From positions 1 to 64,000 of IMG/VR virus record IMGVR_UViG_3300042516_004811: 64,000 nt of DNA; one strand, 5' to 3'. This stretch comes from a virus. The notes beneath the pieces were generated by a model, which was not told where the DNA came from, did no database searches, and saw nothing but the letters and a program-made list of their open reading frames with translations. Made by a program: the position numbers and the translations under genes. Shown here one piece after another: positions 23,015 through 62,917 of this stretch (position 1 is its first letter; each line of letters begins with the position of its first letter).

Positions 23015-23266
23015 GTGAAGAAAGAACTACTATCCAACATCCTTCTCAGGATTCTCGCCACGTTTGCCGCCTCTGGCCTTGGCGTTATCGGTGCCGGAGC
23101 AATAGCCGGCATCCAAATGACACAAGCTGTCCTAATGGCCGGCATTGCTGGAGTTGCCACGGTTATTGAGGGTTTGGCTCGCGCATTCCTCGATGATGGG
23201 AAACTAACAAAAGAGGAAATTAACGCTGTATTTGCGAAGGTAGATAAGAAAGTCGCCAAGGACTAA
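23015..23266 (+). CDS. holin-like two-TM protein
   Basis: Two TM helices, charged C-terminus DDGKLTKEEI. Confidence 0.55.
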   Translation: MKKELLSNILLRILATFAASGLGVIGAGAIAGIQMTQAVLMAGIAGVATVIEGLARAFLDDGKLTKEEINAVFAKVDKKVAKD

Positions 23267-23405
23267 TCTCCGGCAGACCCTTATACCAGATAAATATTAC
23301 GCCACTAAGCAAATATCGAGTGCTACCGTGTTCTCACGAAGAGAAGTTCTTCGTCCAGGGGGATGAAGTGATTTTTTCAGATTTATCCAAACGGAACGGT
23401 AACCG

Positions 23406-23765
23406 GTGGCACGCAAAGAAGAAATCGAGCAGGTTTGGCACAACGACGGCCACCGCTTAATCCTGCGTATAAATCGCGCAGAATTAGAGGTGCTCGAAGT
23501 CATCTGCCCCCACGAAACAGGAAGCGGTCCGTGCAGGGACCGGAAGAATGAGTGTGTGGTGCGCCTGTTTGTCTACAGATTTGGTATGGACTGCAACGGG
23601 GGTGTTTGCCCGCCATCACAGCAGATTCCAATCTGCTGGACAATAACTGGAGACATAGACGATATGGACGCGTCCCAGGTTTGGTTCATGCCGTTAACTG
23701 ATGAGATATTCAGTGCCTGGATGGTTTCAAACGGTCTTGACCCTAATCCGCCTGCATCTTCATAA
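23406..23765 (+). CDS. hypothetical Cys-rich protein
   Basis: ORF with plausible composition. Confidence 0.55.
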   Translation: MARKEEIEQVWHNDGHRLILRINRAELEVLEVICPHETGSGPCRDRKNECVVRLFVYRFGMDCNGGVCPPSQQIPICWTITGDIDDMDASQVWFMPLTDEIFSAWMVSNGLDPNPPASS

Positions 23766-24225
23766 TATTTCGCTTATCGGCAGAGTTTCGCAACTCCAAT
23801 TTCTTGCGGAAGCCGTATTCAACATCCGCAAGAATCTTGTCTTCGATTTCTAAAGCTTTTTCGTCTACTCCAAAAACATAGTTTGAGGCGTTGGAAAGCT
23901 TTGCCCTAACATCGGCCATATACCTTGGTCCAAGGAGTCGGCTCTTGAGGGCCGCCCTGTAGGCCACGGTTGCGCTAATAGCAGAAACCCCCTGCTGCGT
24001 GATGCACCACAAATTCTTATCTACCTGACGCAGGTAGCCCATCTTCTCAAGAGACCTTGCCGTGCCATTGAATGCTTCTTTTGGTCTGCTCATTTTATTG
24101 AAGTAGCCAGAAATACACGACATGCACCTATCTGCTGTAAAAGGTTCAGAAATCATTTTTCCGAAACAAAGCATTGCGTACATTCTTGTCCCGTACGGAA
24201 CTTTTATCTCTCGCCCAGATGCCAT
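23743..24225 (-). CDS. hypothetical protein, possible winged helix
   Basis: SLEKMGYL....WCITQQG resembles a wing. Confidence 0.45.
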   Translation of the reverse strand: MASGREIKVPYGTRMYAMLCFGKMISEPFTADRCMSCISGYFNKMSRPKEAFNGTARSLEKMGYLRQVDKNLWCITQQGVSAISATVAYRAALKSRLLGPRYMADVRAKLSNASNYVFGVDEKALEIEDKILADVEYGFRKKLELRNSADKRNIMKMQAD

Positions 24226-24238
24226 GACGAGATGATAC

Positions 24239-24679
24239 CTAGAACGGTGAGTCGTCTTCTACTTCTGGCGATGAATCTTTTTCCCCACCAAGTCGCGTGA
24301 TTGCCTTCAAAAACTGCTGTATATCAGGTTGAGAAAGAATCAGAGAATTATTTAATCTATAGACATTTTGTCGGTTCACTTTTGTCTTTGTAATTAGTCC
24401 TGCAGCAATCAATTGCTTTACCGTTTTATCAATCATTGTTTCGCTCAGGTCGAGGTAGACGGAGATTGCTCGAATTGTCATTGTTGGGTCATCAGCCAAA
24501 GAAACCAGAACTCTTCCAGCAGTAGATAGAAGACTTATATCTTCACCTTTGTGGTATCTAAATATCTTCTTGTCATCAAGAGCTTGAAGCACTTTTTCAA
24601 CAGCAGCCGTATCTCCGCCGGTAGAAGCCAGAACCTCTTCAAGGACTTTCTTTATTTCTTCTGACTTTTGATTTTTCAC
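24239..24679 (-). CDS. MarR/ArsR-like winged-HTH regulator
   Basis: MTIRAISVYLDLSETMIDKTVKQLIAAGLITKTKVNRQNVY. Confidence 0.8.
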   Translation of the reverse strand: MKNQKSEEIKKVLEEVLASTGGDTAAVEKVLQALDDKKIFRYHKGEDISLLSTAGRVLVSLADDPTMTIRAISVYLDLSETMIDKTVKQLIAAGLITKTKVNRQNVYRLNNSLILSQPDIQQFLKAITRLGGEKDSSPEVEDDSPF

Positions 24680-24790
24680 GACATATCTCCACGTGGGGTT
24701 CCCGGTGGTGTACTATTGTGGAAATCACTGCGACCAGCAGTGAGACCACCACATCCATCTATCCCAAACACTAGCAGGCGGGGGAATAAA

Positions 24791-25069
24791 ATGCTGAAAG
24801 ATGCGCTATCCAACCTTATCGAGAAGGCCGAGTCAGGCCGACCGAAAGAATGCAAAATTTGCAAAATAGTCAATGAGCAGGACTCTGAGACTGCGGAAAT
24901 AATTATTAAAACTTTTCAGAGTGATGCCTCAACTATGTCAATCGTTCGTGCCCTCAACTCTGAGGGCATCAATCTATCCAGGGAATACCTGGGCGAGAAG
25001 CGCAAGGTCTGCTTCAAGGACCCCAACTCCAACTGCGCGCTCATGAGCAATAAAAAAGGCGGTAAGTAA
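24791..25069 (+). CDS. hypothetical CxxC protein
   Basis: CKIC motif, RBS, upstream of the phosphoesterase. Confidence 0.55.
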   Translation: MLKDALSNLIEKAESGRPKECKICKIVNEQDSETAEIIIKTFQSDASTMSIVRALNSEGINLSREYLGEKRKVCFKDPNSNCALMSNKKGGK

Positions 25070-25071
25070 CC

Positions 25072-26319
25072 ATGGCTCAGAAGAAACCAACAGAACGAGC
25101 CACAGCTCATAAGAAACCAGCACTTGGCTCAAACTTAAAGTCTATTATGGATGATGCCAACAAGAGCGAGAAGGACAAGCAGTCCAAGAAGATGCTCAAT
25201 GATATCGCCGCCATGCTTTCCCGAAAAGGTATTGACATTTCGGAAGTTGGCACTGTCAACAAAGTGTCGTTGTATCAGACGGTTACAAAAGACGAGGATG
25301 GCAATACTCAGGTCCATGATTTGCAGGCTATTCAGTTCAGTCCTGCATGGGAGACTGGCCCAGAATGGCCGGTGGTTACCCAGGGCCCTTCAATACAACT
25401 ACAAAAGCCAAAGACAAAAGCTGCACCCCCTAAGGGGTGGCATACGGCTGTCATAGTGCCTGATATACAGATTGGTTTTTACCGTAAATCATTGGATGAC
25501 TACGAGTTGGAGCCAATTCATGACGAAAAAGCAATTGCTGTCGCTCTTGAGGTAATCCGTGAAATGCAACCCCAGCAGGTTGTCATGGTTGGCGACAACC
25601 TAGACTTCGCTGAATTTGGCAAATATTTGACCGCAGCTCCATTTAAGCAGCTCGTTCAGGCATCGATTGACAGAGCCACAATGCTTTGCGCGCAGATGAG
25701 AGAAGCCGCTCCCCATGCTGAAATCACATGGATTGCTGGAAACCACGAGGCCAGAATGGCCAGATATATCCAGACAAACGCTGAGGCAGCTTTCGGCATC
25801 ACCCGAGGAAAAGTAGATAAATTTAGAGAGAACTGGCCTGTGTTGTCCGTCCCATTCCTTTGCCGAATGGACGAATTTGATGTCAAGTACCTGCCTGGGT
25901 ACCCAGAGTCGGCTCACTATATCAACTCCAACCTAGTGGTTGTCCATGGTGACAAGGTTGTCTCAAACAACTCGACTACAAAGAAGTATCTGGACAACGA
26001 GCGTATATCAGTCATCTATGGACATATCCACAGAAACGAACTCGCCTACCGCACCTACCGCACTGACCATGGCCCGAGAACAATCATGGCAGCAAGCCCT
26101 GGATGCCTCTGCCGAGTGGACGGCGCAGTACCTTCCACGAAATCCGGCATGGACGAATTCGGTAGACCAATCCTTCAGGGTGCCGAAAACTGGCAGCAGG
26201 GTCTAGGCATAGTCACGTATCAGCCTTTCGGGGTTGGCGATGAGTGGTTCAACTATGAGCCAATGTGGATTTATAACGGCCGGGGAATCCTGAGAGGCAA
26301 GGAATATAAAACCTTATGA
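25072..26319 (+). CDS. calcineurin-like metallophosphoesterase
   Basis: PDIQ, GDNLD, GNHE, HG, GHIH motifs. Confidence 0.85.
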   Translation: MAQKKPTERATAHKKPALGSNLKSIMDDANKSEKDKQSKKMLNDIAAMLSRKGIDISEVGTVNKVSLYQTVTKDEDGNTQVHDLQAIQFSPAWETGPEWPVVTQGPSIQLQKPKTKAAPPKGWHTAVIVPDIQIGFYRKSLDDYELEPIHDEKAIAVALEVIREMQPQQVVMVGDNLDFAEFGKYLTAAPFKQLVQASIDRATMLCAQMREAAPHAEITWIAGNHEARMARYIQTNAEAAFGITRGKVDKFRENWPVLSVPFLCRMDEFDVKYLPGYPESAHYINSNLVVVHGDKVVSNNSTTKKYLDNERISVIYGHIHRNELAYRTYRTDHGPRTIMAASPGCLCRVDGAVPSTKSGMDEFGRPILQGAENWQQGLGIVTYQPFGVGDEWFNYEPMWIYNGRGILRGKEYKTL

Positions 26320-27194: not shown

Positions 27195-27440
27195 TTGTCT
27201 GAGGATGCATGGACCTGGTTTATCTTCGGTATGGAGCTAGTCGGAATCGCCGGCCTCTATAACGCAGGAAAGCGCCATTGGTGGGGATGGGCAATGGTCC
27301 TGGCCTCCGCTATCCCATGGTTCGTGTACGCCGTAATCTTCGATAAGCCAGGATTCGCAGCAATGAGCCTGCTCTGGATATCTGTCCACACCAGAAACAC
27401 TGTCAAGTGGTATCGGGACAGACACAACAAGACTCAGTAG
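27195..27440 (+). CDS. small PnuC-like membrane protein
   Basis: Three TM segments, WWGW motif. Confidence 0.5.
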   Translation: MSEDAWTWFIFGMELVGIAGLYNAGKRHWWGWAMVLASAIPWFVYAVIFDKPGFAAMSLLWISVHTRNTVKWYRDRHNKTQ

Positions 27441-27722: not shown

Positions 27723-28091
27723 ATGCAGAACTCTAGCTCTGGAATTCCAGATAAAACACCCACACAAAAATACGGTAATAAAAGTTCCACACCAGAATCG
27801 TCTACTGATATACCTGATAAAACGTGGTTTGACAGTGCAGCTTGCAAAGGGAAAACCGAACTAATGTTCCCCAAACAACATAAGGACATTACCTATATTG
27901 CACAGGCAAGGGCTATCTGTAAGTCGTGCCCAGTGAAGCCCCAGTGCTTAGAGTACGCCTTGGAGTTCCCACCTGCCGATATGCATGGGGTATGGGCCGG
28001 CCTGACTAGCAGACAGTTGGCACAGGAACAGAGAAAGCGTAAGATAAAGCCAGTTAGACCAACACTGGCACAGATGTGGGGGGAACAATGA
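27723..28091 (+). CDS. whiB: WhiB-family Fe-S transcription factor
   Basis: W...AAC, C..CPV...CLEYAL, GVWAGL. Confidence 0.92.
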   Translation: MQNSSSGIPDKTPTQKYGNKSSTPESSTDIPDKTWFDSAACKGKTELMFPKQHKDITYIAQARAICKSCPVKPQCLEYALEFPPADMHGVWAGLTSRQLAQEQRKRKIKPVRPTLAQMWGEQ

Positions 28092-28304: not shown

Positions 28305-28379
28305 TGGAGCCCCCGGACAGGATTGAACTGTCGACCTACCGCTTACAAGGCGGTTGCTCTACCACTGAGCTACAAGGGC
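28305..28379 (-). tRNA. tRNA-Thr(UGU)
   Basis: Cloverleaf GCCCTTG/CGGGGGC, D arm GCTCAGTGGTAGAGC, anticodon loop CT-TGT-AA, T loop TTCAATC, encoded CCA. Confidence 0.95.
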
Positions 28380-34083: not shown

Positions 34084-34199
34084 GGCACTACCTTATCCAC
34101 CACCGCAGATAATTGCAACCTACAAATTAATCACTCCAGTAAATTCAAAATCAAAAGGTTTAGTGACAAGCGAACATGTGTTCGTCTAGTATTCCTAGT

Positions 34200-34574
34200 A
34201 TGGACAACACCACAAAATTCAACATTTATATACAGGCTCTCGAGCAGTACATCGCCCGAGAAGGTAATTCGAAAATCCCGGCAACTTATGTCGAAAAAAT
34301 CGAAAATTCTGACATCTCACTGGGAGCTTGGGTTGGTTACATCCGTCAGAGATACCGCAAGCAAATTCTTTCTGATTCTCGCATCTCACGCCTGGAACAG
34401 ATTTCAGGTTGGCAGTGGGGTCCGTTCCAGCCAGGGCCGGCAACTGATGCTTCAAGAAATGAAACAATTCGCAATATGCGTGCCGCCGGAAAATCACTCA
34501 GAGAAATTGCGGATGAGTTTGATTTGTCTCGGCAGCGAGTTCACCAAATTATCAAGAAACTAAACATCGCCTAG
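34200..34574 (+). CDS. helicase-associated (HA) domain fused to a sigma-4-like HTH
   Basis: L..Y..REG...IP....LGAWV..IRQRY...L...W.W; SLREIADEFDLSRQRVHQI. Confidence 0.75.
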   Translation: MDNTTKFNIYIQALEQYIAREGNSKIPATYVEKIENSDISLGAWVGYIRQRYRKQILSDSRISRLEQISGWQWGPFQPGPATDASRNETIRNMRAAGKSLREIADEFDLSRQRVHQIIKKLNIA

Positions 34575-34621: not shown

Positions 34622-34930
34622 ATGCCGTCAAGAAAACCACATTATGGAAATGCCTTCGGGAGTTTCCCCCGTGCGATAACTGACCCGAAATCTACCGGGG
34701 CTCCAACCCGAGGGAAGGTGCAAAAGCACAGCGGGGCTCCAGTCGGAGCGCAGGCATTTGTCGGCTTTCTGTTTATCGTCGTGGTGAACTCGGCGGTGCT
34801 GTGGACTGGCGCACGGATTCTGCGCTCTGCCGAGGTGGTGTCTTGGAGTCTGTCTCTCGTGGAAGTCGTGAGCCTTGCGATTCTGTGGGTCGTGTGGCGA
34901 GCGATAGACCGAGCCACACATCGGCACTGA
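34622..34930 (+). CDS. hypothetical two-TM membrane protein
   Basis: AAGGAG RBS, two hydrophobic helices. Confidence 0.55.
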   Translation: MPSRKPHYGNAFGSFPRAITDPKSTGAPTRGKVQKHSGAPVGAQAFVGFLFIVVVNSAVLWTGARILRSAEVVSWSLSLVEVVSLAILWVVWRAIDRATHRH

Positions 34931-40061: not shown

Positions 40062-40167
40062 AGTGTTTCCTTTCTGTGGGTTGGTGGTAATGGAAGCATA
40101 CCATGTATGGTTCAGACTTATCTACTGACTAATGGGGCTATCTCTCCCCAACGGTCAGCAATGTACT

Positions 40168-40374
40168 TCATCCAATAATGGAGTCAGTGGGGATTCCGAG
40201 TGCCTTGCCAAGAGCAACTAGCGTCTCAACGCTTGGCATGAAGTGACCGTTCTCAATGCGATTTACGGTCTTTCTGTCAATGCCAGCCCGAGAAGCAAGT
40301 TCTATCTGTGACCAGCCTGCGTTCTCACGCAGTTCCTTCACTCGCTTACTAATGGTTTCTTGTGTTTTTGTCAT
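40168..40374 (-). CDS. XRE-family HTH regulator
   Basis: LRENAGWSQIELASRAGIDRKTVNRIENG...PS. Confidence 0.9.
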   Translation of the reverse strand: MTKTQETISKRVKELRENAGWSQIELASRAGIDRKTVNRIENGHFMPSVETLVALGKALGIPTDSIIG

Positions 40375-41409: not shown

Positions 41410-41745
41410 TTAGATGGACTCAACAGGAGAAGCGTAGATAAGTTCCGAGTAGGCAATGCGCCAGCCCTCGTCACTACCTTGCCAAGCGATACGGATAATG
41501 TCACGCACTCCACTTAGGTATCGGAACACTGCATCATCGTCAATGCCAAAATCGTCTAGTTCATCACCCACAGGTGGAGCAGAGAAAGAGACATAGGCGT
41601 AAATGTGGTGGCTAGCCTTTTCTTCCCATTTCAGTGCAACATCAGCACCAACCAGTATGCGCCCCTGCGTTGCCGTGTGATACCAGTGTGTGAACATCAC
41701 TGCGATAGTCCACGCACAACGACGCAAAAAGTTATCTACCCACAT
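41410..41745 (-). CDS. hypothetical protein
   Basis: GGGGGA RBS before MWVDN. Confidence 0.5.
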   Translation of the reverse strand: MWVDNFLRRCAWTIAVMFTHWYHTATQGRILVGADVALKWEEKASHHIYAYVSFSAPPVGDELDDFGIDDDAVFRYLSGVRDIIRIAWQGSDEGWRIAYSELIYASPVESI

Positions 41746-41962
41746 TGAGTCCCCCTTCCACGGTACGGAGCGTTGCGTCTGCAACGGCGAGAGCAAGTGT
41801 ACGGGCATCAACGCCATGCTCATCAGAAATCCATGGAAATAGATGACCGTCTCGTATGTCATCCCACATGTTGCACATTGCTTCTACTGGCGTGACACCG
41901 AGAGTGTTGTATTCAGTCCATAGGAAGTCTGTGAGTTCGCCCACGCTCATCGGCTCACTCAT
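41732..41962 (-). CDS. hypothetical protein
   Basis: ATGA coupling. Confidence 0.55.
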   Translation of the reverse strand: MSEPMSVGELTDFLWTEYNTLGVTPVEAMCNMWDDIRDGHLFPWISDEHGVDARTLALAVADATLRTVEGGLNVGR

Positions 41963-42171
41963 TGCGCTACTTCTTCTACCTTGATAGTTGAGATACTGGT
42001 GAGGTTCTTGCGGAAGTCAAATGAGAACTTCATTGCCCAGTAATCCAGCATGACGCTCTGCGCTTCTTCGCAAGCCTCTTTGAGTTTCTTGGGAGAGATA
42101 GAGTCGTCAAAAATGATGTCCTCTGAAATCTCTGTACCACGGATTACGCCCGTAACTCTGTACTTTGCCAC
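41959..42171 (-). CDS. hypothetical protein
   Basis: GTG start directly after GGAAGGTAGATAA. Confidence 0.55.
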   Translation of the reverse strand: MAKYRVTGVIRGTEISEDIIFDDSISPKKLKEACEEAQSVMLDYWAMKFSFDFRKNLTSISTIKVEEVAQ

Positions 42172-42208
42172 TTATCTACCTTCCTTCCGAATCCGTGCCA
42201 GTCTACTT

Positions 42209-42790
42209 CTAGACCAGCAACTCCTTGACCCAACCAAATCGCTCATCCACTCGCATCGCAGCCAAGCCAGCGTCAATGGCTCGCTGTGCGTTAGTGTCAA
42301 TGGAAGCAACGACAGGCTGACGGTTGAGAACACTCTGAACATCCTTGGCAGTGAGAGCCAAGCCATCTCCAATAAAAGCGACCAGCAGTTCAGTGCTAGG
42401 TGCGAATCGGTTGGCGGTGTTGTGCAGGCTCATGTACTCGTTGCGCACGACACACACACGCTGAACCGTGTAAGCGGTCGGGTACTCCTGTGAGCAGTTG
42501 CGCCCGTTGTCAATGACCACGAAATCGTAGTCGGAAACATTGACAGATGAAATCTTTTCACTGTCACCGACACGCACCATGTCCAAGTTGGGGAACACGC
42601 CCTTGGCAACCTCTCCACGGGAACCAATGGGTAATGCAATATTGAGCCACGGATAAGTGTCGGGGGAGTAGCCCGAATCAACGAGCAGAGTAGAACGCCC
42701 CTTATTCGCAAGAATCAAAGCCAATGAGCAGGCGGTTGTGGTCACTCCCACTCCGCCCTTGTATGAATGAATGTCGTAAATCTGTGTCAT
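42209..42790 (-). CDS. ParA/MinD-like P-loop protein with a degenerate Walker A
   Basis: SYKGGVGVTTT, TLLVD, YDFVVID. Confidence 0.75.
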   Translation of the reverse strand: MTQIYDIHSYKGGVGVTTTACSLALILANKGRSTLLVDSGYSPDTYPWLNIALPIGSRGEVAKGVFPNLDMVRVGDSEKISSVNVSDYDFVVIDNGRNCSQEYPTAYTVQRVCVVRNEYMSLHNTANRFAPSTELLVAFIGDGLALTAKDVQSVLNRQPVVASIDTNAQRAIDAGLAAMRVDERFGWVKELLV

Positions 42791-42849
42791 GTTTTCCTCT
42801 CGGTAGGTGTTGCTAGTAACTGTACCACTAACGGTTCAGACTTATCTAC

Positions 42850-43236
42850 CTATTCCTCGTCCTCGTCGTCCGACCAAAGTTCGTTTTCGTCCTCTGAATC
42901 GTCCTCAAACTCATCCTCGTCATCGCTGATGAACTGAACGGTCACGGATGAAACTCGTCCGTCCTCTGCGTATTCCACGAATACGGGATACAGGCCGTCT
43001 CCCCAGCCTGATGAGACACACACGCCAGCACCAGTGCCACCATGCTTGTAGAGCAACTGCCCACCACCCTGCTCACTGAGGGAAGCACCGCAGGCTCCGT
43101 TATACGAGTACGGGTGGGTCTCTCCCTCTGACGGCGCAAACTCCTCATCGCTGAGGAAGTCGCTGACATAGCACGGGTCGGTCAGGAGAATCTGTCCTGA
43201 ATCCACTCCGCAGTATCCGATGAGTTTCCGTTCCAT
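42850..43236 (-). CDS. DUF4241-like protein
   Basis: GVDSGQ..L.DP, SSGWGDG.YPV. Confidence 0.65.
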   Translation of the reverse strand: MERKLIGYCGVDSGQILLTDPCYVSDFLSDEEFAPSEGETHPYSYNGACGASLSEQGGGQLLYKHGGTGAGVCVSSGWGDGLYPVFVEYAEDGRVSSVTVQFISDDEDEFEDDSEDENELWSDDEDEE

Positions 43237-43585
43237 TTCTTATCTACCTTTCTTGGTGGGTGATGTGAACGACTGTACCACACACGGTTCAGACTTACAA
43301 AGCGAGTCATCCACCACCGTCATTGTGTTAGGGGGGTGTGTCAGAGTTATTTACCAGCCCCACCAAAAAAGCGAGAAATCTGAAACAGGCATGACTTATC
43401 TACTTGTCCCCCCACGCGCACGGGTTCACCGCCACCCGCAGGGAGCCCCGGCGGTCCACTGCATGTAGCGGGGCTCCAGCCGAACAGGTGGGTATGTGGC
43501 TCGGACTTATCTACCTACCTAGGCAGGGGGGCAGAGTGAGGGTAGATAAGTATGGGGGGCGCACTTATCTACCCTCTACCGCCAG

Positions 43586-43909: not shown

Positions 43910-44362
43910 TTACTTCCCTTCCAGCCAAGCGTCAAACTCGTCATCGGTCAGAGATACGACCTTCGGACTGGGGTCATCCATGATTCGGGCGACTTCCGCC
44001 TCTACGGTGGTGCGCACTCGCTCATCGTTCAGAATGAGTCCAGCGATGAGATGAAAACGCTCGCCCATGAACTCGGCAGGCACGTCGTAATCGTTTCCGT
44101 CGTACTCGCCACGCTCATTCAGATAGCCAACGACCACACAGTCACCCACGAGAGGACGACCGAACAGAACGCTCGCCACGAGATTCGGAGCAAGACCGAT
44201 GAGCAGTCCCTCGTCGTGGACGTAGCCAGCGAGATTCTCGCCATTGGTCACGCAGTCAATCCAACCGCCAACCAGTGAGTTGATGGTCTGATAGGCGTTC
44301 TCCTCGGGGAGAGTGACGGGTGCGATTCCCCCGTCTGCCTTGATTAGTAGTGCTTGTGTCAT
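43910..44362 (-). CDS. DUF3846-family protein
   Basis: LVGGWID.V...YVHDEGLL.GL.PN..AS...LVGD.V. Confidence 0.75.
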   Translation of the reverse strand: MTQALLIKADGGIAPVTLPEENAYQTINSLVGGWIDCVTNGENLAGYVHDEGLLIGLAPNLVASVLFGRPLVGDCVVVGYLNERGEYDGNDYDVPAEFMGERFHLIAGLILNDERVRTTVEAEVARIMDDPSPKVVSLTDDEFDAWLEGK

Positions 44363-44427
44363 GTGGATTCCTTTCTCCGTTGGTGACACCTGAACTGTAC
44401 CACCACAGGTTCAGACTTACAAACCGA

Positions 44428-44558
44428 ACTTATCTACTTGCTCCCCCATCCCAGCCTCGCCCTCTCGCGCGGTGGGAGCCCCGGGGTTCTGCCAACTGTG
44501 GCGGGGCTCCAGCTCGGCACGGCTCGCTGGCTGTGAGTGGGGTGGCAGGTAAGAAAGT
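44428..44558. repeat. ~132-bp symmetric intergenic element
   Basis: ACTTATCTAC..GAGCCCCG-N18-CGGGGCTC..GTAAGAAAGT. Confidence 0.9.
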
Positions 44559-45427: not shown

Positions 45428-45700
45428 GGAGATTTCATCACTCAACCAACTACGGCTATCTCGTCTAGCCATTCGCCTCGCAGAGATAGAAGCAGACCTC
45501 GGGTTCGTGGAAGCGCAGAACGCAGAGAACAGAGCAGTCCTCCGCAGAGCCACATTCCACTCGGTTTCAGAGTTATCTACCTCCCCTGAACCTCCCACTA
45601 TCTAGGTAGATAAGTGTCCCCAGACAAGCGAAAGGGGGAGTGAGCAACCAACTGCCCACTCCCCCTTGCTTGGGGCGTTTCCCTTATAGAGAAAGGGAGG

Positions 45701-46909: not shown

Positions 46910-47308
46910 TTGGTTGTCCCTTTCTCGGTTGGTTGGTTGGACACCACGACAGTACCACATACGGTTCAGACTTAGCAAGGGTGGGACTTATCTACCTAGT
47001 CAGCGAGTGCGCTGGTGAGGTTCTTCCACCACCGTGAATGTCTTGGGGAGAGGTTGTCACGCCCTGCCTCACCGCACGGCTTGACGAACTCGGCAACTTG
47101 ATGCGACTTATCTACTTGCCCACCCCTTCCTGCGCCTCACCGCCCCAGCACGGCGGAGCCCCGGCGGTGATGAGCGTCAGCGGGGCTCCTGCCCACCATC
47201 GGCGCACGGAGAGAAATGTCATCGGCTCGGCATTGGGTCGGACTTATCTACCCCCTCACAGAAAGGGGGAGAGAGAGGGTAGATAAGTGCCGAACGCCTA
47301 CGCTACCG

Positions 47309-50544: not shown

Positions 50545-50623
50545 TTGAGAAAGTTCCAAGCAGATGTCCGATACGGGGACTTAGCGAACCTCAAAGTAAA
50601 TGAGAGAGAGGAACAGACAAGAG

Positions 50624-50863
50624 ATGGACGATTACGACAGATACGACCAAGAGTTGGCTACTTGTGCCGTGCTGTATGACGAGATAAACGAGAACTACAT
50701 CTGTGGATACTGCCTAGACGACTTCTCGTTCTCGCAACTCCACGCCACCTACGGTGGGAACATCCTGCCGATACCCACATTCCGTTCACGCAAGACACGC
50801 AAGCACCTGTGTCACGAGATGTGCGGTATGTGTGGTCTACCAGCGTCACGAGCGTTCTCGTAG
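50624..50863 (+). CDS. small Cys-rich protein
   Basis: CGYC...C..CGMC; GAGGA RBS. Confidence 0.5.
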   Translation: MDDYDRYDQELATCAVLYDEINENYICGYCLDDFSFSQLHATYGGNILPIPTFRSRKTRKHLCHEMCGMCGLPASRAFS

Positions 50864-50926
50864 GGGGACAGGGCTTATCTACCCTCCCAGCCCGACGCTA
50901 AGAGGGTAGATAAGTGTCCAGCCTTG

Positions 50927-51442
50927 TCAGCAGATAGAGAAACCGCCAGAGTTCTCCAAGAACTCCACGAACGCACGGACATTCTCCGTGCTGAACGGAT
51001 AGCCAGACTCCCACGACTCTCGTGTGCCTATCCCGTCACAAGCGTTACACCAGCCGTGTGTGCGACCAGTCAAAATCTGAACTTCTACGGACAACTCTTT
51101 GTCGTGTTGCCCCATCTCACGACCAATGTCATCAGTACGGATACCCGTGCCGTCACAGAGGTCGCACTTCTCACGGGGAAGGCTCGCCCTCCACTCGTTG
51201 TATTGACGCTCGTTCTCGGCGGTAGCACCCGTCTCCAACTCGTGGCGCAACTGCTTGGCGAGTTCCAGCGCACCAGACTCATCCAGCCCGTCACCGTCGT
51301 TGTAGTGACCAGACACGCCCTCGCAGAGTTCGGGAGCAACCGTCACGCAGTAGTCCCACAGGGGTCGCCACCACCACACATTGTTGCGGAAGTATTCGCC
51401 CGTCTCGTTGGTCGGCTTCTTGCCGTACACATCCATTCCCAT
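50927..51442 (-). CDS. hypothetical protein with a DnaJ-type CxxCxGxG Zn finger
   Basis: MGMD...YFRNN.W.WRPLW; CDLCDGTG, CNACDGIG. Confidence 0.7.
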   Translation of the reverse strand: MGMDVYGKKPTNETGEYFRNNVWWWRPLWDYCVTVAPELCEGVSGHYNDGDGLDESGALELAKQLRHELETGATAENERQYNEWRASLPREKCDLCDGTGIRTDDIGREMGQHDKELSVEVQILTGRTHGWCNACDGIGTRESWESGYPFSTENVRAFVEFLENSGGFSIC

Positions 51443-51506
51443 TACTTTGCCCCTTTCACTTGGCTCGGTCTTGTGAGCGTACCACACACGGCACAGACTT
51501 ATCTAC

Positions 51507-52222: not shown

Positions 52223-52365
52223 ACTTATTTACCTGCCTACCCGTTCCCTGGGTTCCCCTGGGGCTGGAGCCCCGTTGGTTCGTGCGATTGGTGCGGGGCT
52301 CCGCCCCCGGCGGGCGTGGGGTGGCGCTGGCTAGCTTGCTGGCACGGGATGGCAAGTAGATAAGT
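52223..52365. repeat. symmetric element carrying divergent promoters (143 bp)
   Basis: Core at 52267-52301; both outer boxes overlap repeat promoters. Confidence 0.88.
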
Positions 52366-52415
52366 TTGAACCTTGAGTGGTACATTGATGTCAAGCCAAG
52401 AGAAAGGGAAACGAA

Positions 52416-52882: not shown

Positions 52883-53005
52883 GCTTATCTACCTGTCTGT
52901 CTGTGGCGCGCGCCCGGGGCGGAGCCCCGTTGGCTAGCGCATCCCGCGCGGGGCTCTCCCCCTGGGCCAAGGCTGGCTCGTGCGTGGGGAAGCAAGTAGA
53001 TAAGT
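52883..53005. repeat. symmetric intergenic element (123 bp)
   Basis: Core at 52922-52956. Confidence 0.85.
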
Positions 53006-53032
53006 CTGTCCCATTGCTGGTAATGTGTTGGC

Positions 53033-53419
53033 ATGACCAAGACCACCGAGTACGACAAGAAGTTCCAAGACAAGTACGGCAATGATGTTCCCAAGGGTGA
53101 TGGCGATTGCTTTGACAAGGCCGTGGAAGTAGCGGAGCGATTTGAGAAGGACTACCCCGATGTTCTCATTGTTCACGGAGAACCGATTGGCACGGGTGGT
53201 GAAGCATTGGGGGTTCGCTTTCCTCACGCTTGGGTTGAGTTGGACCTAAATGGCTTTGCGCTCGTGATTGACGAGTCCAATGGAAACGATGTGACGATTT
53301 CCAGGGATTTCTACTACGCTTTCGGCAACATCGTGGAAGCCGATGTGGTGAGGTACACGCTGACCGAGGCACGGATACAGATGCTGAAGCACAAGCACTA
53401 CGGCCCTTGGCACTGGTAG
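53033..53419 (+). CDS. transglutaminase/cysteine-protease-like protein
   Basis: GDCF...VHG...HAWVE..ID; leaderless after TAATGT. Confidence 0.55.
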   Translation: MTKTTEYDKKFQDKYGNDVPKGDGDCFDKAVEVAERFEKDYPDVLIVHGEPIGTGGEALGVRFPHAWVELDLNGFALVIDESNGNDVTISRDFYYAFGNIVEADVVRYTLTEARIQMLKHKHYGPWHW

Positions 53420-53475
53420 ATAAGTCTGAACCTGTAGTGGTACAGTGATGACAGGCCAAGAGAAAGGGAAATAAA

Positions 53476-53800: not shown

Positions 53801-54193
53801 ATGGCTACCAAGCCTGCGAAAAAGACCGCCAAGAAGGCGGCACCAAAGAAGACGGTGGCCAAGAAGCCTGCCGCGAAGAAGCCCGTGGCAAAGAAGTCGC
53901 CGGCCAAGAAGAAGCCTGCAGCCAAGAAGGCAAGCGCGAAGAAGGCGCCTGCCAAAAAGGTTGCTGCAAAGAAGTCGCCGGCCAAGAAGGCTGTCGCAAA
54001 GAAGGCTCCGGCTAAGAAGGCTGCAAAGACTGTTGCCAAGAAGGCTCAGCCGAAGAAGAAGCCGATTGCAAAGAAGCTTGCGAAGGTCATTCCGATTACG
54101 CGTCGTAGCAAGTCGACAACGCGCAAGGATGTGAAATACGTATCCGTTCTCTCTACACCAGTGAGTGACGCGACTCCGGAAAGCAATTCCTAA
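53801..54193 (+). CDS. histone H1-like Lys/Ala/Pro-rich DNA-binding protein
   Basis: Repeated AKK/PAKK units, GAGGAG RBS. Confidence 0.8.
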
Positions 54194-54905: not shown

Positions 54906-55161
54906 TAGCGAATCCTGTCTATGGCCCAAAGAAGGCCCATCACGACAAAGAAAACTATCCCAAGGATAATCATTGAATCTCTATTCTCTCGGTTCATGCG
55001 CTACAGGATACATGCCGCATCGCCGGCTTGGCAAATAATGGTAAATGCTGGTATGTTGACTACAAGGGCTGGTGGGGTGCGTTCCACTCCTTTCTCGGTA
55101 CACCTCGGAACGCATCTCGCCGGCCTTACCTATCTACCTATTTATTGCTAGGCTTTTGCCC

Positions 55162-57078
55162 ATGAGGATGTACCTAGAGAATGGCGAAGTAGTACTGGAC
55201 TTTCCGTACGACGCTGGCCAGGTGAATGAAATCAAGAAAATCACTGGAGCCAAATGGGACAAGCTTGGCAAAGTGTGGCGCCTCCCAATCACCTCAATGA
55301 ACGAGGGCAGAGATTTCGCAATGAAGCACGACTTTGAAGTTGCGCTGGATGCAATGAAGTTCTTGGTAGATAAGCCCAAGACAGCCTCAGCAAGGGTATT
55401 CTTGCTGGATGGTTCAATAATAATGAGGTTCCCCTACGAGAGGGTCATCATTAAAGCGGTTAAGCAAATACCCGCAGTCTCGTGGGACAGCAAGAAGTCT
55501 GCATGGCAGGCGCCCCTCTCATCCGTCAAGGAAGTCATCAACTGGGCAGAAACATTCTCCGTCTATGTCGAGCCCGAAGTAATCGCGATAGCAGATGACG
55601 TAACGGAAAAAATGAACGAGTTTATTGAGGCTTCTCGTTCCACGGACGCTGGGGTGCAGGTAGATAAGTTGCAGGGTGACCTACTTCCCTATCAGCGAGC
55701 AGGTGTTGCCTATGCATCAAAAGCACTACGTACATTCATTGCAGATGAGATGGGTCTAGGAAAGACCATTCAGGCACTGGCGACCGTTGAGTATGTCTAC
55801 GACTCGTATCCAGCCGTTGTTGTGTGTCCTCCAAGCCTTGTACTTAACTGGGCGTCTGAATACCGTAAGTGGTTGCCACATCGGAGAGTCGCCACGGTGA
55901 CCAATAGAAAAGAGTTCCCTGACGCTGGCTCCTATGACGTTGTAGTGGTTGGTTATTCCAATCTCGCAACATGGGAGAAGAGTTTGTCTGGTCACCGCTC
56001 GTACATCTTCGATGAGAGTCACTACTGCAAAACGCCAACAGCACAGCGCACTAAAGCAGCAGTCAAGATAGCCCGTAGCGCCCCCAAAGAGGGCATTGTT
56101 CTGTGTCTCACTGGAACGCCAGTAACAAACAGGCCGAATGAATACGCCTCTCAGCTCGAGATTCTTGGAAGACTCAAAGACTTTGGTGGTCTGTGGGGCT
56201 TCTACCGACGCTACTGCGCTGCCTATCAGGACAAGTTCGGTCAGTGGAACATCAGTGGACACTCGCACCTAGATGAACTCAATGAGCGCCTGCGAGGCAC
56301 GTGTTACATCAGGCGTACGAAAGACCAAGTTCTCTCCGAATTACCACCCGTGATTCACAGCAAGATTCTCATTGAGGGCGAGAGCGCGGCGATGAAGGAA
56401 TACAAGAAGGCAGAGAATGACATTCTTGTTTACATCGCAGACAGAGCACGGCAAATGGCAATCGAGCAAGGCAAGCCATCGTACGGTGCCGCCATTGCCG
56501 CAATGATTAGAGCAGAGGCAAACGAGCATTTGGTTCGTTTGTCCGTTCTTCGCCGGCTTTCAGCAAAGGCAAAGATGGAAGCCGCAATGGAATGGATTCA
56601 GGCTCGGGTGGAAAATGGTAAAAAAGTCGTAGTTGCCGCTCACCACAGAGACATCGTGGATGAGATTTCTAGAAAGTATGGCAACCTTCGTATTCAGGGC
56701 GGAATGGCAGTAGAGGAAGTAGAGGACAATAAGCACAAGTTCCAGACACTCTCGGTAGATAAGGCGCCAGTCATCGTTCTTTCGATACAAGCAGCCAAGA
56801 CTGGTCACACTCTCACCGCATCGGAAGAATGCTTGTTCATTGAGTTGCCATGGACACCCGCAGACGTAGACCAGACATACAGCCGTCTTCACCGTATTGG
56901 GCAAAAGGGGAGCGTTACGTCCACCTACATGCTCACTGCTGGCACGATAGACGAGGACATCTATTCACTAATTGAGAACAAGCGTTCAGTAGTGAATGCA
57001 GCAGTAGAGGGCGGAGAAATGGTTGCGGACGATGGAGCGGTTCAGCTCATTCTGAGCATGATTGACAAGATTAGTTAG
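55162..57078 (+). CDS. SNF2-family helicase with two N-terminal HARP-like repeats
   Basis: ADEMGLGKT, DESH, LTGTP, Q...R.HRIGQ; duplicated FPY....IK.I....WD...W; leaderless after TAGGCT. Confidence 0.9.
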   Translation: MRMYLENGEVVLDFPYDAGQVNEIKKITGAKWDKLGKVWRLPITSMNEGRDFAMKHDFEVALDAMKFLVDKPKTASARVFLLDGSIIMRFPYERVIIKAVKQIPAVSWDSKKSAWQAPLSSVKEVINWAETFSVYVEPEVIAIADDVTEKMNEFIEASRSTDAGVQVDKLQGDLLPYQRAGVAYASKALRTFIADEMGLGKTIQALATVEYVYDSYPAVVVCPPSLVLNWASEYRKWLPHRRVATVTNRKEFPDAGSYDVVVVGYSNLATWEKSLSGHRSYIFDESHYCKTPTAQRTKAAVKIARSAPKEGIVLCLTGTPVTNRPNEYASQLEILGRLKDFGGLWGFYRRYCAAYQDKFGQWNISGHSHLDELNERLRGTCYIRRTKDQVLSELPPVIHSKILIEGESAAMKEYKKAENDILVYIADRARQMAIEQGKPSYGAAIAAMIRAEANEHLVRLSVLRRLSAKAKMEAAMEWIQARVENGKKVVVAAHHRDIVDEISRKYGNLRIQGGMAVEEVEDNKHKFQTLSVDKAPVIVLSIQAAKTGHTLTASEECLFIELPWTPADVDQTYSRLHRIGQKGSVTSTYMLTAGTIDEDIYSLIENKRSVVNAAVEGGEMVADDGAVQLILSMIDKIS

Positions 57079-59081: not shown

Positions 59082-59255
59082 ATAAGTCTCGCCAAGCGAG
59101 GGTTCCCTGATTGAGGGGGTGAGCCAATCGGTTCGCCCCCTTTATCTATGGGTAGATAAGTCCAGCAGGAGCCCCGCTGACCAGGGTGAGCTGGGGTGGA
59201 CAGGTAGATAAGTCGAAGAGTTGATTTTTCTCTTTGCATTGTTTATTATGGTGAC

Positions 59256-60506
59256 ATGACTGGTACTGAAAGCCCAAAGGGGTTCACCTCGCCGTTAGAG
59301 GCACATGAAATGCAGACTGAATACCTGGTGTGGCGCAAAGGCCACCCGAGCGCAGACCGACTATTGCACGCATCTCAGTGGACTGCTCAGCAGAATGGAT
59401 TGTTTGAGTCGGTAGTTACATTGGAGAACAGAGAAAAGCAGTTCGCAGACTCGCGCGTTGCTCATAACGTGTGGCGTTTGACGGATGATGAAATCATTTC
59501 CCGTGCAGACACCGTGTACCTATCGGAAGAACTGCACGAATTGGTGCACACAGCATCGGAGTCAATGCCTGATGAAGTTCTTTTTCGCACTGATGTCTAC
59601 ACGCCGTGTGCAATGGTTTTCCTTGAACGCCCAATCCAGGTGAGGGTTCACGCTGGATGCTTATCGGATGACATTGACGAAATAGTAGATAAGGTTCGTC
59701 AATACGGTGGAACCGTTGAGGGAACCCGTAAGTACACGCAGACAGAGGACGGATACCTTGATGGCGTAGACGTTTACGAAATCGTTGCATTTTCGTGGGG
59801 CGATTGCGAGTCAATCTATCCTCACGTGCTTGAATCGGTAGCGAAGCAGTATGGCACTGCTAGTCCTGAATACAAATTCCAACTTGAGTTGGAACACTAC
59901 GAGAAGGAGGAATTGAATCACGCACGTTTTGTTGAAGAGGACGGAACAGAGCACCCGATGAACGCAATCATCGTTGGTGTGTTTGGGCGTATTGTCAGCT
60001 CAGAGATTGACGGTTTGACACTTGCCGTAAGAAACCCACTCATCTCGTTGAAAATGAATCTGATTGACAGTTACTACTTTATGTATGGAGAAGATGGTTT
60101 TCAACTTGAAAATGACTCGTTTGAAGAAGCAATGAATCAGTCAAGTTTTGACCGTTATCGCAGGTCTCGTAGATTCATCGTTGCACTGTTGCGTTTGATG
60201 AATGAGTACGTAGATGTTGAAACAACCCGTGTGCCTCGCCCGTTCTCTCGCAGGGGCGCAAGGGCTGGACGCGTGAACACTGACAGTATCACCACGCTAG
60301 AACTACGCAGGGCGCTCTACGGTGATAGTGATTCAGCAACAGGGCGCAAGGTATCGCTCGCACACCTTGTGCGTGGACACTGGCGTAATCAGTGGTATCC
60401 ATCGCAACAGATGCACCGTGCTCGCTGGATAAATGCGCACCGCAGAGGTGGAAGCGCAACAGATGAAGTGGTAGATAAGCCTCGCATCGTGACAGTGACG
60501 AGGTAG
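59256..60506 (+). CDS. conserved phage hypothetical (C-terminal VRGHWRNQW motif)
   Basis: HLVRGHWRNQWYPS...WINAH.RG; leaderless after TATGGT. Confidence 0.7.
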   Translation: MTGTESPKGFTSPLEAHEMQTEYLVWRKGHPSADRLLHASQWTAQQNGLFESVVTLENREKQFADSRVAHNVWRLTDDEIISRADTVYLSEELHELVHTASESMPDEVLFRTDVYTPCAMVFLERPIQVRVHAGCLSDDIDEIVDKVRQYGGTVEGTRKYTQTEDGYLDGVDVYEIVAFSWGDCESIYPHVLESVAKQYGTASPEYKFQLELEHYEKEELNHARFVEEDGTEHPMNAIIVGVFGRIVSSEIDGLTLAVRNPLISLKMNLIDSYYFMYGEDGFQLENDSFEEAMNQSSFDRYRRSRRFIVALLRLMNEYVDVETTRVPRPFSRRGARAGRVNTDSITTLELRRALYGDSDSATGRKVSLAHLVRGHWRNQWYPSQQMHRARWINAHRRGGSATDEVVDKPRIVTVTR

Positions 60507-60669
60507 CACTACTCACTCAGGAGCCCCGGCTGCTAGCGCCCTCGCGCGTTCGCGCTTCGGTTGCTCTCGGGCAGAGAATGCAAGTAGGTAGATAAGACCT
60601 AGCCCCCACCCCACTTATCTACTAAGCAGGGCAGGGGCAGGACTAGCAAGCGGAGATAGGGAACGCTTG

Positions 60670-61368
60670 CTAGTAGGGCTCGGGCGCGTGTACGGTCATG
60701 CCTGCGCCACACTGCGCGCACTTCATGCCTTCACCCGTGTACTCGGGATAGGACGAATCGTCAGCGCAAGAACCTTCCCACGAAATCCACTCGCCGTACC
60801 ACGAGAGTCCGTGAGTCTCTTCGCCACTGTCACACGTGACGTGATAGGAATCGTTATCGCATGGAAAGTATGACGCGTCACTCATCTCAATGCGGAATGC
60901 GCGCGGACGCGTATAGCCACCGCGAACGTCACAACCCCCGTGAATCTGAATCAGCGCGTACACACGCTCACCGATTGCGAACGTGACACCCTGCAAGGTT
61001 TGCGAGAGTGAATCGTCCCCGTTGTAGGTGTTCCACGTATGCGCCGACGAATCGCGCTCATTGGCGAAATCCTGCATGAGTGAGAAGTACCCGTCATCAG
61101 CATTGTGAGAGCAGAACGAATCCCACTCAGCATTGAGTGAGTCGTCATACTTGACGCGCGCCGTGAGATAGTGAAACACGGAAAGCGTCACGCCGTAGGA
61201 ACTCGCCCACGCTTGCGGTTCGCTCTCAAAATCAGCAAGCACCTTGCCTGCGTTTTTCTCGTAGTGTCTGCCGTAGTAGTCGCCACTATCAAGCATACTC
61301 CTACCCGTATTCTCGGTCAGCATTTCAGCAATGACCTCGGCGGTTTTGGTGTCGGTTGCGGTTGTCAT
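60670..61368 (-). CDS. hypothetical protein
   Basis: NTYN, HGG.DVRGGYT.P motifs; RBS overlaps the box. Confidence 0.7.
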   Translation of the reverse strand: MTTATDTKTAEVIAEMLTENTGRSMLDSGDYYGRHYEKNAGKVLADFESEPQAWASSYGVTLSVFHYLTARVKYDDSLNAEWDSFCSHNADDGYFSLMQDFANERDSSAHTWNTYNGDDSLSQTLQGVTFAIGERVYALIQIHGGCDVRGGYTRPRAFRIEMSDASYFPCDNDSYHVTCDSGEETHGLSWYGEWISWEGSCADDSSYPEYTGEGMKCAQCGAGMTVHAPEPY

Positions 61369-61382
61369 GACTTATCTACCTT

Positions 61383-61661
61383 TCAGCGATTACGGAACGG
61401 ATAGGACGGGTGGGCTTGGCGCTCGTGGTTGCGCTCTTCGGCAAGTGCGTTGCTCATTGCGATTGTCATCAGCGTTGCGCCGATTGACCCGAACACTGCG
61501 AACACACCGCCCACGAGCAAGTCGTACAGAGCGTGTGAGTAGTAAGACACTGCCAGCAGAGCAACCCCGAACAACGGGAACGCCCACGACAGGACAGCGA
61601 GAGTGCGCATTACTGTCACGTCTTGCGCTCGGTTTCGGTTGGTGTGGTGTGTAGTAGCCAT
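61383..61661 (-). CDS. two-TM membrane protein
   Basis: Repeat promoter, RBS, two TM segments. Confidence 0.6.
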   Translation of the reverse strand: MATTHHTNRNRAQDVTVMRTLAVLSWAFPLFGVALLAVSYYSHALYDLLVGGVFAVFGSIGATLMTIAMSNALAEERNHERQAHPSYPFRNR

Positions 61662-61862
61662 TTTTTCCCTTTCGTTTGGCGACACACTCACCGTATCACA
61701 CGTGGTACAGACTTACAAGTATTTCCCGACTTATCTACCTGCCACCCCACGCCACAGCAAGCCCCAGCCTTGCACCCTGCCGGGAGCCCCGCTGATTAGC
61801 GGTATGCTGACGAGATGCCAGTACTTTACGGACATTCCACAAGCACGGAGGACGGGAACGAT

Positions 61863-62090
61863 ATGAGTGACATCACGCAGTTCACTAAGTGGTTTCACCT
61901 CAATGGCATGGACTTCCAACTAACGAACATCGCTGGCCAATGGAAATGCACTGCGTGGAAACGTGGCGTACCGACGCTTGAAGACGGCACGCCTAGTGAT
62001 TACTGGGCAAGTGGTTCGTGCACGTCAATAGTGAAAGCGATGCTCCGTTGCTACGAGTCAATCAGACACACACAACGCAAGGGAAACTAG
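61863..62090 (+). CDS. hypothetical protein
   Basis: GGAGGA/GGGA RBS. Confidence 0.5.
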   Translation: MSDITQFTKWFHLNGMDFQLTNIAGQWKCTAWKRGVPTLEDGTPSDYWASGSCTSIVKAMLRCYESIRHTQRKGN

Positions 62091-62104
62091 TTATCTACCC
62101 GTAG

Positions 62105-62491
62105 TTAGGTAGTCGGCGGGTCATCGTGCCATTGGCCATCAGGCCAGGCAGTACGAGCGTGGACACCATAGATGTCAGTGCCGAACAGGTCTGTGCCTTG
62201 CCAAGCGTGACGGCAACACGGCACTTCGTCATCGCAAGGGTGACAGTTCGCTCCGAGTTTCTCAGCGAGTCGGGGGAAAAGCTCGAGAAACTTCACAACG
62301 CAATCGTGACAGAAAATCCATTCTCTCGTTCGTTGGTCGCCTGCGAGCACAGGCATCATATCGTCAAATCCACCGTAGTATCCGAATGTGTCAAATGGTA
62401 AGACCCAACCATTATCAGGGTAGATGAGTTGCGAGTTGCACTCAGTGCGTGTGTCGCACGCCGAACACACTGCATAGTTCTTTTCTCTCAT
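62105..62491 (-). CDS. Cys-rich hypothetical protein
   Basis: Leaderless after the repeat promoter; several CxxC. Confidence 0.6.
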   Translation of the reverse strand: MREKNYAVCSACDTRTECNSQLIYPDNGWVLPFDTFGYYGGFDDMMPVLAGDQRTREWIFCHDCVVKFLELFPRLAEKLGANCHPCDDEVPCCRHAWQGTDLFGTDIYGVHARTAWPDGQWHDDPPTT

Positions 62492-62545
62492 AACTGCGAG
62501 CGTACCACACTGGGGACAAACTTAGCAACCCGTGGCACTTGCGCC

Positions 62546-62917
62546 TTATCTACTGAATGCACCTGAGGTCATTCGTATGAATGTTGAGTAGGCATACTGC
62601 TTGCGTTGGCTTGCGATGTACTGCGCTTCGTACCGCTTCCATCTGTTCATTAGTTCCAGTTCGGTATCCGATGTTGCGATACCTAACTGTCTCTCGGCTT
62701 CCGCCATCAGGGATACCATCTGAAATGGGACACCCGTGGAGCTCCACGGCGTTACGTCGTGCGCACGACAAGCATCAAGCACTTTGGTGGTGAACAGTGC
62801 TGCGAGGTGAATTCTCGTCATTCTTTCACGCTCATCTATCTCAAAGAATGACGGCGCACCAACACTTATGCGTTCACGCAATACCGCATAGGGCGTGACA
62901 AACAGATAGGTGTTCAT
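62546..62917 (-). CDS. hypothetical protein
   Basis: TACTGT 8 nt upstream of ATG. Confidence 0.55.
   Translation of the reverse strand: MNTYLFVTPYAVLRERISVGAPSFFEIDERERMTRIHLAALFTTKVLDACRAHDVTPWSSTGVPFQMVSLMAEAERQLGIATSDTELELMNRWKRYEAQYIASQRKQYAYSTFIRMTSGAFSR

Follow-up and report, generated by a model that had tools for sequence, protein, structure and literature searches.

The virus recorded in IMG/VR as IMGVR_UViG_3300042516_004811 carries a dense array of a short, oriented DNA word (the box) throughout some 40 kb of early and accessory genes, and this word may be the operator of a phage-encoded DNA-binding protein. The stretch analysed (the window) comprises the first 64 kb of the complete genome, which has 151,107 bp and direct terminal repeats. 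When both strands are searched for the 8-mer TTATCTAC/GTAGATAA, 95 exact matches are found in the window, as compared to 1.00 ± 0.98 matches to TTATCTAC (maximum 4) in 100 dinucleotide shuffles (Z about 96). All except one are located between positions 23240 and 62553, and this box domain, with 94 exact copies, spans the early/accessory gene block at a density of one box per about 420 bp. The complete genome has 100 copies, merely 5 of which occur in the 87 kb beyond the window, and a density map thus places 94 of the 100 in the 23.2-62.6 kb block. The initial annotation had estimated about 90 copies saturating 40 kb, far above chance, and this is borne out by the count; it had noticed none in the first 23 kb, where one copy is present at position 18794, with poor flanks. 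The extended consensus, aGGTAGATAAGTc, has about 12 nt and is asymmetric. The 10-mer GGTAGATAAG occurs 60 times, apparently with a single copy (113463) outside the block. In the phage collection, megablast with a 12-kb part of the block had no match, and in an IMG/VR scan for TAGGTAGATAAGTC a single contig was enriched; with 99.65% identity to the window, it represents the same phage.

Boxes are found within genes far more frequently than codon usage predicts, contrary to what the initial annotation had named as a refuting result: there are 17 in-gene copies, while a synonymous-codon shuffle gives 1.4 ± 1.1 (maximum 5 in 500 shuffles). The tripeptides Val-Asp-Lys (VDK) and Val-Asp-Asn (VDN) use the box spelling GTAGATAA in 12 of 13 cases inside the region but in only 4 of 13 outside. 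Read in sense direction, the box is open in just one frame, the other two containing TAG or TAA, and the in-gene copies occupy the Val-Asp-Lys/Asn frame, as had been proposed. Three of them (55366, 55660 and 56755, together covering 55366-56762 on the plus strand) encode VDK in the helicase gene 55072-57078, at positions where the orthologues have APK, IPT/VPG and VEE/VES. In other lineages the helicase gene has boxes of that lineage's own variant, at different codons. The in-gene boxes have arisen through amino-acid changes in this lineage.

Gene ends and gene starts are affected as well. The box provides the stop codons of the ORFs (open reading frames) ending at 27440, 41732, 53419, 54450 and 59081, which confirms a claim of the initial annotation. 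According to the ORF list and the promoter scan, the box at 53416-53423 (plus strand) is at the same time the TAG stop codon of ORF 53033-53419 and the −35 box of the following promoter; the other boxes at ORF ends are those at 27437, 41732, 54447 and 59078. Boxes had also been reported at ribosome-binding sites, and upstream of the starts at 42171, 43236 and 61368 the box indeed sits between a GAAAG-type Shine-Dalgarno (SD) sequence and the start codon. At 43240-43247 (minus strand) it occupies the SD-to-start spacer (gaaagGTAGATAAgaaATG), and the layout is the same at 42172 and 61372.

The orientation of the boxes was assessed on a gene map built by conservation against related genomes. On this map there are 20 in-gene copies, of which 18 read GTAGATAA in sense and 2 in antisense direction, and 61 of the 74 intergenic copies point in the same direction as a flanking gene on one side or both. 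The same bias is seen across six genomes (sense to antisense 64:19 in genes and 168:54 in intergenic regions). The 13 fully antisense copies are found 18-118 nt beyond a stop codon and about 10 of them pair with a sense box as the stem of a hairpin. Boxes had been described as occurring in both orientations, unlike the stoperators of mycobacteriophage L5. This contrast fails, because orientation follows transcription and most antisense copies pair with a sense copy in a hairpin.

Twelve box/anti-box pairs were folded, with free energies of −10 to −31 kcal/mol and z-scores of −1.7 to −7.7, and none of these hairpins is followed by a U-tract. In the post-stop hairpin at 43539-43575 (minus strand, −22 kcal/mol, z −7.5) the arms consist of the box and its complement, and equivalent post-stop hairpins occur on the minus strand at 47241-47289 (−26 kcal/mol, z −7.7) and 45570-45616. 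Two hairpins separate convergent genes, one at 50872-50916 (−31 kcal/mol, z −7.1), between 50600-50863 (plus) and 50927-51487 (minus), and one at 60585-60625, between 59256-60506 (plus) and 60670-61368 (minus).

Many boxes are tied to promoters. In 12 copies an extended −10 element (TGnTAnnnT) lies exactly 14 nt after the 8-mer. The box then spans −38 to −28 of a promoter with a good extended −10 and a poor −35 element, which substantiates the earlier statement that boxes overlap −35 regions. An example is found at 42819-42852 on the minus strand (GGTAGATAAGTCTGAACC-N5-TGGTACAGT). The boxes concerned are those at 40118, 41180, 42842, 48836, 49157, 50336, 51499 and 51734 on the minus strand and those at 52356, 52996, 53416 and 58704 on the plus strand. 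Seven further boxes (37953, 44430, 45216, 46213, 46988, 48138 and 61731) are located 13-18 nt further upstream of promoters which have their own TTGnTA −35 element, as exemplified by 44390-44440 (minus strand). In total, about 19 sigma-A-type promoters with a TG-extended −10 are overlapped or abutted by a box. Generic scans for sigma-70 promoters and for terminators gave matches at chance level. The outermost rightward box promoter (52353-52386, plus strand) marks, on the gene map, the point where the leftward and rightward early blocks diverge, and no sense transcript should cross its box at 52356. A typical module consists of a stop codon, a box/anti-box hairpin, one or two boxes, a box promoter and the next gene; modules span about 120-400 bp and recur about every 0.5-1 kb. 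The distance from box to −10 differs among lineages (14 nt in the present phage, 23 nt in G019, G004 and G005, 26-27 nt in G003), and the box is therefore considered an operator rather than a core element read by a sigma factor. Six of the box promoters (42820, 43273, 44390, 52198, 53426 and 58714) carry an imperfect 20-bp palindrome, CTGAACC-N6-GGTACAG, across the −10 element. A dimeric regulator, such as the conserved XRE protein described below, could bind to this palindrome, which would then represent a second layer of control.

Related genomes have high-copy words of their own, which share the theme xxx-TAGrTAA-sT and occur in about 45-120 copies per genome. The core is TAGATAA, with the 5′ triplet aGG and the 3′ end GTc in the present phage (G000, 100 copies of the 8-mer), GAG and GTC in G019 (119 copies), GAG and CT in the partial genome G004 (47 copies), aAC and GTs in G002 (47 copies), tAA and GTC in G003 (79 copies), and tAA and CTc in G007 (78 copies); in G005 the core is TAGGTAA, with GTG and GTC (80 copies). 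The copies of each genome are restricted to a single block of 30-40 kb and these blocks are collinear. Box counts per syntenic gap correlate between lineages (r = 0.92, 0.85 and 0.96) and the strand strings match. In nucleotide alignments, a single orthologous site upstream of a conserved promoter is found in three spellings (AGGTAGATAAGT / GAGTAGATAAGT / GTGTAGGTAAGT), and both arms of an orthologous hairpin have been re-spelled together, the G019 counterpart of the hairpin at 45570-45616 having both arms in G019 spelling. At many sites conservation is limited to the 10-12-nt word and does not extend to the flanks. The positions of the sites are thus conserved, whereas their spelling has changed in a concerted manner at about 100 sites in each genome, and selection has created new sites. 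Other members of the clade differ more strongly. G021 (L380-L387) has an unrelated word, GGAAATTTGGTAT, about 25-30 times, G008 (L326-L333) has a high-copy word of CCGACAA type, and G024 and G025 (L358-L371, genomes of 137 kb) have no high-copy word. Within the clade, a private word for the early block has apparently been invented anew or lost on several occasions.

Concerted re-spelling with retention of positions would be predicted for sites that evolve together with a lineage-specific trans-acting reader. We thus propose, with a probability of roughly 45%, that the box serves as the operator of a phage-encoded, sequence-specific DNA-binding protein and that the boxes form a stoperator-like array which controls the whole early/accessory block. 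The initial annotation had suggested a region-wide landing code for a DNA-binding protein over early genes, and this is still the best reading of sites that are oriented, selected and re-spelled. A reader bound at the promoter boxes would block initiation, while at the intragenic and intergenic boxes it would block elongation in an orientation-dependent manner. The whole block could then be shut off or kept silent as a unit, for example at the switch from early to middle expression.

The search for such a reader has so far led to one candidate. XRE and winged helix-turn-helix (HTH) proteins of the phage had been put forward in the initial annotation, but their recognition helices are invariant across box types; a ribbon-helix-helix protein, also named there, was not identified. 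The 68-aa XRE/Cro-type protein (40168-40374, minus strand) has the same helix in genomes with and without the box and its gene is also present in the box-less G021-G023, G026 and G031, so that its presence does not predict the box. The 146-aa TrmB/MarR-like winged helix (24239-24679, minus strand) has an invariant helix in all genomes, and that of the 245-aa sigma-r4/Mor-like HTH protein (86.4-87.2 kb of the genome), which is probably of the terminase small subunit type, is invariant across box types. The 132-aa protein with an HA domain and a sigma-r4-like HTH (34176-34574, plus strand) is encoded by a core gene that runs against the flow of the early block; its HTH is invariant and occurs in box-less genomes, too, and Foldseek with its model gave generic HTH matches alone. 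The 102-aa product of 34622-34930 is a membrane protein. Lsr2 was not found in the phage, and a search for T7-type RNA polymerase had no match in the phage but is uninformative, as it had none in any control genome either.

A role in partition had also been considered. No parABS cassette tracks the boxes, and a ParA-like gene is patchy in box-bearing relatives. This orphan gene codes for a small ParA/MinD-type ATPase (42209-42790) and is followed by two tiny ORFs (41959-42171 and 41732-41962) of no recognised fold; a recognisable ParB partner is absent from its vicinity, and a ParB_N domain occurs in the structural region.

The best remaining candidate, and a candidate only, is a fast-evolving 160-aa MarR-like winged-helix protein encoded at 23743-24225 (minus strand), which has a box (24017) in the codons of its own wing. 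No match to Pfam, PHROG or PDB sequences was obtained. In the AlphaFold model, the winged helix is predicted with confidence and continues into a long helical tail, and every top match in Foldseek is a MarR-family regulator. Strong orthologues are present in 11 of 11 TAGrTAA genomes searched, while matches elsewhere are weak and partial or missing.

Several points weigh against a dedicated operator array. The four HTH proteins discussed above fail the co-variation test, as their helices are invariant across box types and they occur also in box-less genomes. The helix of the MarR-like protein does not follow the box one-to-one, since two pairs of genomes with a common box, G007/G013 and G005/G020, have 5-7 differing residues in this helix. 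Its restricted distribution appears confounded by phylogeny, and the gene profile common to box-bearing genomes is likewise confounded by relatedness. In addition, MarR proteins usually bind palindromes as dimers, whereas the box is asymmetric. The scans detected neither an integrase nor a gp71-type repressor (HTH plus Stoperator domain); for the latter, about 45 proteins were compared to Pfam, PHROG and PDB sequences, which is not exhaustive. The density of boxes, genes included, is far above that in L5. Finally, orientation with transcription would fit a signal at the RNA level equally well, and repression and activation are not distinguished.

An RNA-level signal is the alternative that survives best, although we regard it as unlikely. 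A phage RNA-binding protein or endoribonuclease would recognise the sequence GGUAGAUAAGU on early transcripts and time mRNA decay, processing or translation, and the box/anti-box hairpins would function in processing or in transcript stability, with T4 RegB/RegA and the RNase III sites between T7 early genes as models. The strong sense-strand bias within and between genes is in accordance with this, as are the boxes in SD-to-start spacers and at stop codons, the stable post-stop hairpins without U-tracts and the lack of an identified DNA-binding reader. However, 12 boxes are at a fixed distance upstream of the −10 element and are thus outside of the transcript that they would control, and across the box at 52356, in the outermost divergent promoter, no sense RNA is expected at all. 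Distant relatives have DnaA boxes, which are read as DNA, at the equivalent position, and a non-exhaustive search revealed no candidate RNase or RNA-binding protein.

These DnaA boxes lead to another alternative. It had been pointed out that the 8-mer is one mismatch from the DnaA-box core (TTATCCAC), and this resemblance is real. In the distant relatives L184, L178, L179, L169, L168 and L182, the perfect DnaA-box complement TGTGGATAA occurs 3-10 times per 8-20 kb, as compared to about 0.15 expected. There it is strongly strand-biased, often in a 12-bp tandem and directly upstream of early-type promoters, that is on the same strand and in the same promoter-upstream position as the present box. 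We consider the DnaA resemblance of the box to be probably ancestral. If host DnaA still read the box, the 95 sites could titrate the initiator, as had been suggested, or DnaA could couple early expression to the replication status of the host. Apart from the resemblance and the tandems in distant relatives, it speaks for this that no phage reader has been identified and that a search of the phage-encoded proteins for DnaA domain IV found none. However, TGTGGATAA and the GGTAGATAA of the present phage differ at two positions, and the box written as TTATCTACC is mismatched at positions 6 and 9 of the DnaA consensus TTWTNCACA. C6 and A9 are important conserved positions of this consensus. Neither this genome nor the other TAGrTAA genomes show enrichment of the perfect 9-mer. 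At least six spellings are found in collinear relatives from similar lake habitats, differing exactly where a conserved host protein would need constancy, and about 100 sites have changed in concert in each lineage. Reading by host DnaA, or its titration, at the present day is unlikely because C6 and A9 are broken, the spelling varies among collinear relatives and the true 9-mer is not enriched, and the concerted spellings argue for a phage-encoded reader instead.

As a further part of the proposal, the word would have descended from promoter-proximal boxes for host DnaA, of the kind retained by more distant relatives, and would then have been taken over by a private reader. In an extended scenario, which is rather doubtful, the clade would have privatised DnaA boxes into lineage-specific words and expanded them ten-fold to about 100 oriented sites, coding sequence included, by which a fast-evolving protein of a non-temperate phage switches the 40-kb block off or on. 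Such a chromatin code of stoperator type would have evolved independently of the Cluster A repressors.

It has also to be considered that the boxes need no reader. They would then be parts of terminator-promoter cassettes like the promoter-early stem-loop (PeSL) units, homogenised by gene conversion and serving as joints for the swapping of modules. The recurrence of the stop-hairpin-box-promoter-gene module about every 0.5-1 kb and the breaks of metagenome contigs at cassettes are consistent with this, and gene conversion does yield concerted evolution. Nevertheless, it has a very low probability. There are lone in-gene boxes without a cassette, made by protein-altering point changes, and at many sites the 10-12-nt word is conserved while the flanks are not. 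Only 20% of the homology-block ends lie at most 30 bp from a box, as compared to 14% for random positions (simulation maximum 24%), and the block is collinear. Least probable is an activator or sigma-appropriation mechanism, where the box replaces the −35 element and recruits RNA polymerase via a MotA-like activator or a phage sigma-like factor: 12 promoters have the box at −38 to −28 with a good extended −10 and a poor −35, and among the phage proteins is a small one with a sigma-region-4-like HTH, but only about 19 of the 95 boxes (at most a fifth of the sites) adjoin a promoter, the −10 distance varies within the genome and between lineages with just 12 of 100 copies at the fixed distance, in-gene and post-stop copies are left unexplained, and the sigma-r4-like HTH does not vary with box type and is present in box-less genomes.

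The phage is a myovirus: it has a tail sheath, a portal and a head of HK97 type, along with giant head-associated proteins. Two WhiB genes are present, one at 27723-28091 (plus strand) and one at 89.0-89.2 kb of the genome. Among 14 control genomes, the WhiB family matched just the actinobacterium, and these genes are taken as markers which point to an actinobacterial host. No integrase and no tyrosine or serine recombinase was found in the phage genome, which looks lytic and is apparently non-temperate. The clade comprises more than 400 IMG/VR contigs (helicase and capsid 60-86% identical at the amino-acid level, genomes of 137-170 kb) from lake and freshwater metagenomes of 18 studies, and the nearest cultured capsids, with about 50% identity, are from Gordonia and Brevibacterium phages. 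No RNA dataset carrying the phage is among the sequencing runs listed. Metagenome DNA contigs are more than 99% identical to the phage; among 40 of the 238 differences one is in a box, a number which has no power with respect to purifying selection.

Short-read contigs from several lakes break at promoter cassettes (40096-40125, 44291-44320, 51374-51392 and 52985-53014). The contig joints at boxes have sides of 20-23 nt and may be assembly artefacts; the cassette repeats fragment assemblies of this phage clade. Loose contig ends at 53825-53971 and many indels are found in the gene for a Lys/Ala-rich histone H1/HC2-like protein (53801-54193), the repeat region of which is hypervariable between strains. 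A single tRNA-Thr (TGT) is encoded at 28305-28379 on the minus strand, in the left part of the box domain.

Several very long ORFs were noticed outside the box domain. A 2102-aa protein (5770-12078) has 11 collagen triple-helix repeat stretches and adjoins tail-fibre-like and glycosyltransferase genes. The ORF at 110345-119248 of the genome (minus strand; L003:6345-15248) codes for 2967 aa, where a prohead serine protease is fused to ArdC-N, a zincin metallopeptidase and a UvrD-type helicase. The adjacent ORF of 2070 aa (102423-108635) has no Pfam match. The products of the latter two are candidate head-packaged cargo proteins.

Multi-site, orientation-dependent blocks of transcription are known in detail for one group only, the Cluster A mycobacteriophages, in which their function is lysogenic immunity. 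If the box is the operator of a phage-encoded reader, the same logic would be used, with sites three to four times as dense, by unrelated, apparently lytic 150-kb phages which are abundant in lakes. The natural re-spelling at conserved sites would supply a set of specificity variants with which the reader can be sought, and the connection with true DnaA boxes in more distant relatives hints at a way for phages to make a regulatory signal of the host their own. As the VDK tripeptides in the helicase show, a regulatory word can override protein sequence. For annotation purposes, the word marks the early regulon and its direction of transcription in uncultured genomes.

Searches of the available literature for the motif and for DnaA-box early promoters in actinophages gave no description of this system. 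The COBRA paper, in the part considered, deals with whiB-encoding freshwater actinophages in general and does not mention such motifs. Regulation of transcription by DnaA via promoter-proximal boxes is established for E. coli dnaA and nrdAB. Boxes of this kind persist in distant relatives of the phage, where they are, like the phage box, located on the same strand directly upstream of early promoters; their 9-mer core is 1-2 mismatches away, and the 12-bp tandem spacing is shared by some phage boxes (46399/46411). Unlike DnaA boxes, the phage word has a lineage-specific spelling and 10-fold more copies, which occur also in genes and hairpins, and its reader is probably no longer DnaA. The CIR operators of the temperate Streptomyces phage phiC31, which are bound by the c repressor, are likewise multi-copy operators of an actinophage; they are distributed over its early region and lie close to early promoters and terminators. 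They are, however, palindromic, number about 18 and have a known repressor, whereas the present box is asymmetric.

The PeSL cassettes of T4-type phages (PMC2839356, PMC4122927) share with the present modules the combination of a hairpin with an early promoter. In both cases these units separate small accessory genes, and the region of the large myovirus genome that contains them is plastic. In the present case, the unit is a short word which occurs also alone in genes, the hairpins lack U-tracts and junctions are not enriched at boxes.

The closest correspondence is with the operator/stoperator networks of Cluster A phages (L5 gp71, Bxb1, TipsytheTRex), which consist of about 25-35 sites with an asymmetric multi-copy word of 12-13 bp (PMC9283540, PMC6550527). 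An asymmetric word of this length in more than 20 copies, sites over −35 elements and in short gaps where they overlap start or stop codons, an orientation that follows transcription, an actinobacterial host and similar but distinct motifs at syntenic sites of related phages are common to both systems. In contrast to the genome-wide sites of Cluster A, the present phages have 95-120 sites confined to a 40-kb block. Many of those in the present phage lie in genes (20) or in hairpin arms, and the word appears to be DnaA-related. The phage itself is a 151-kb myovirus with terminal repeats and without integrase or parABS, in which no two-domain repressor of gp71 type was found. In summary, the logic is that of the Cluster A stoperators, but in another phage group, at much higher density, in one block, through coding sequence and apparently without lysogeny.

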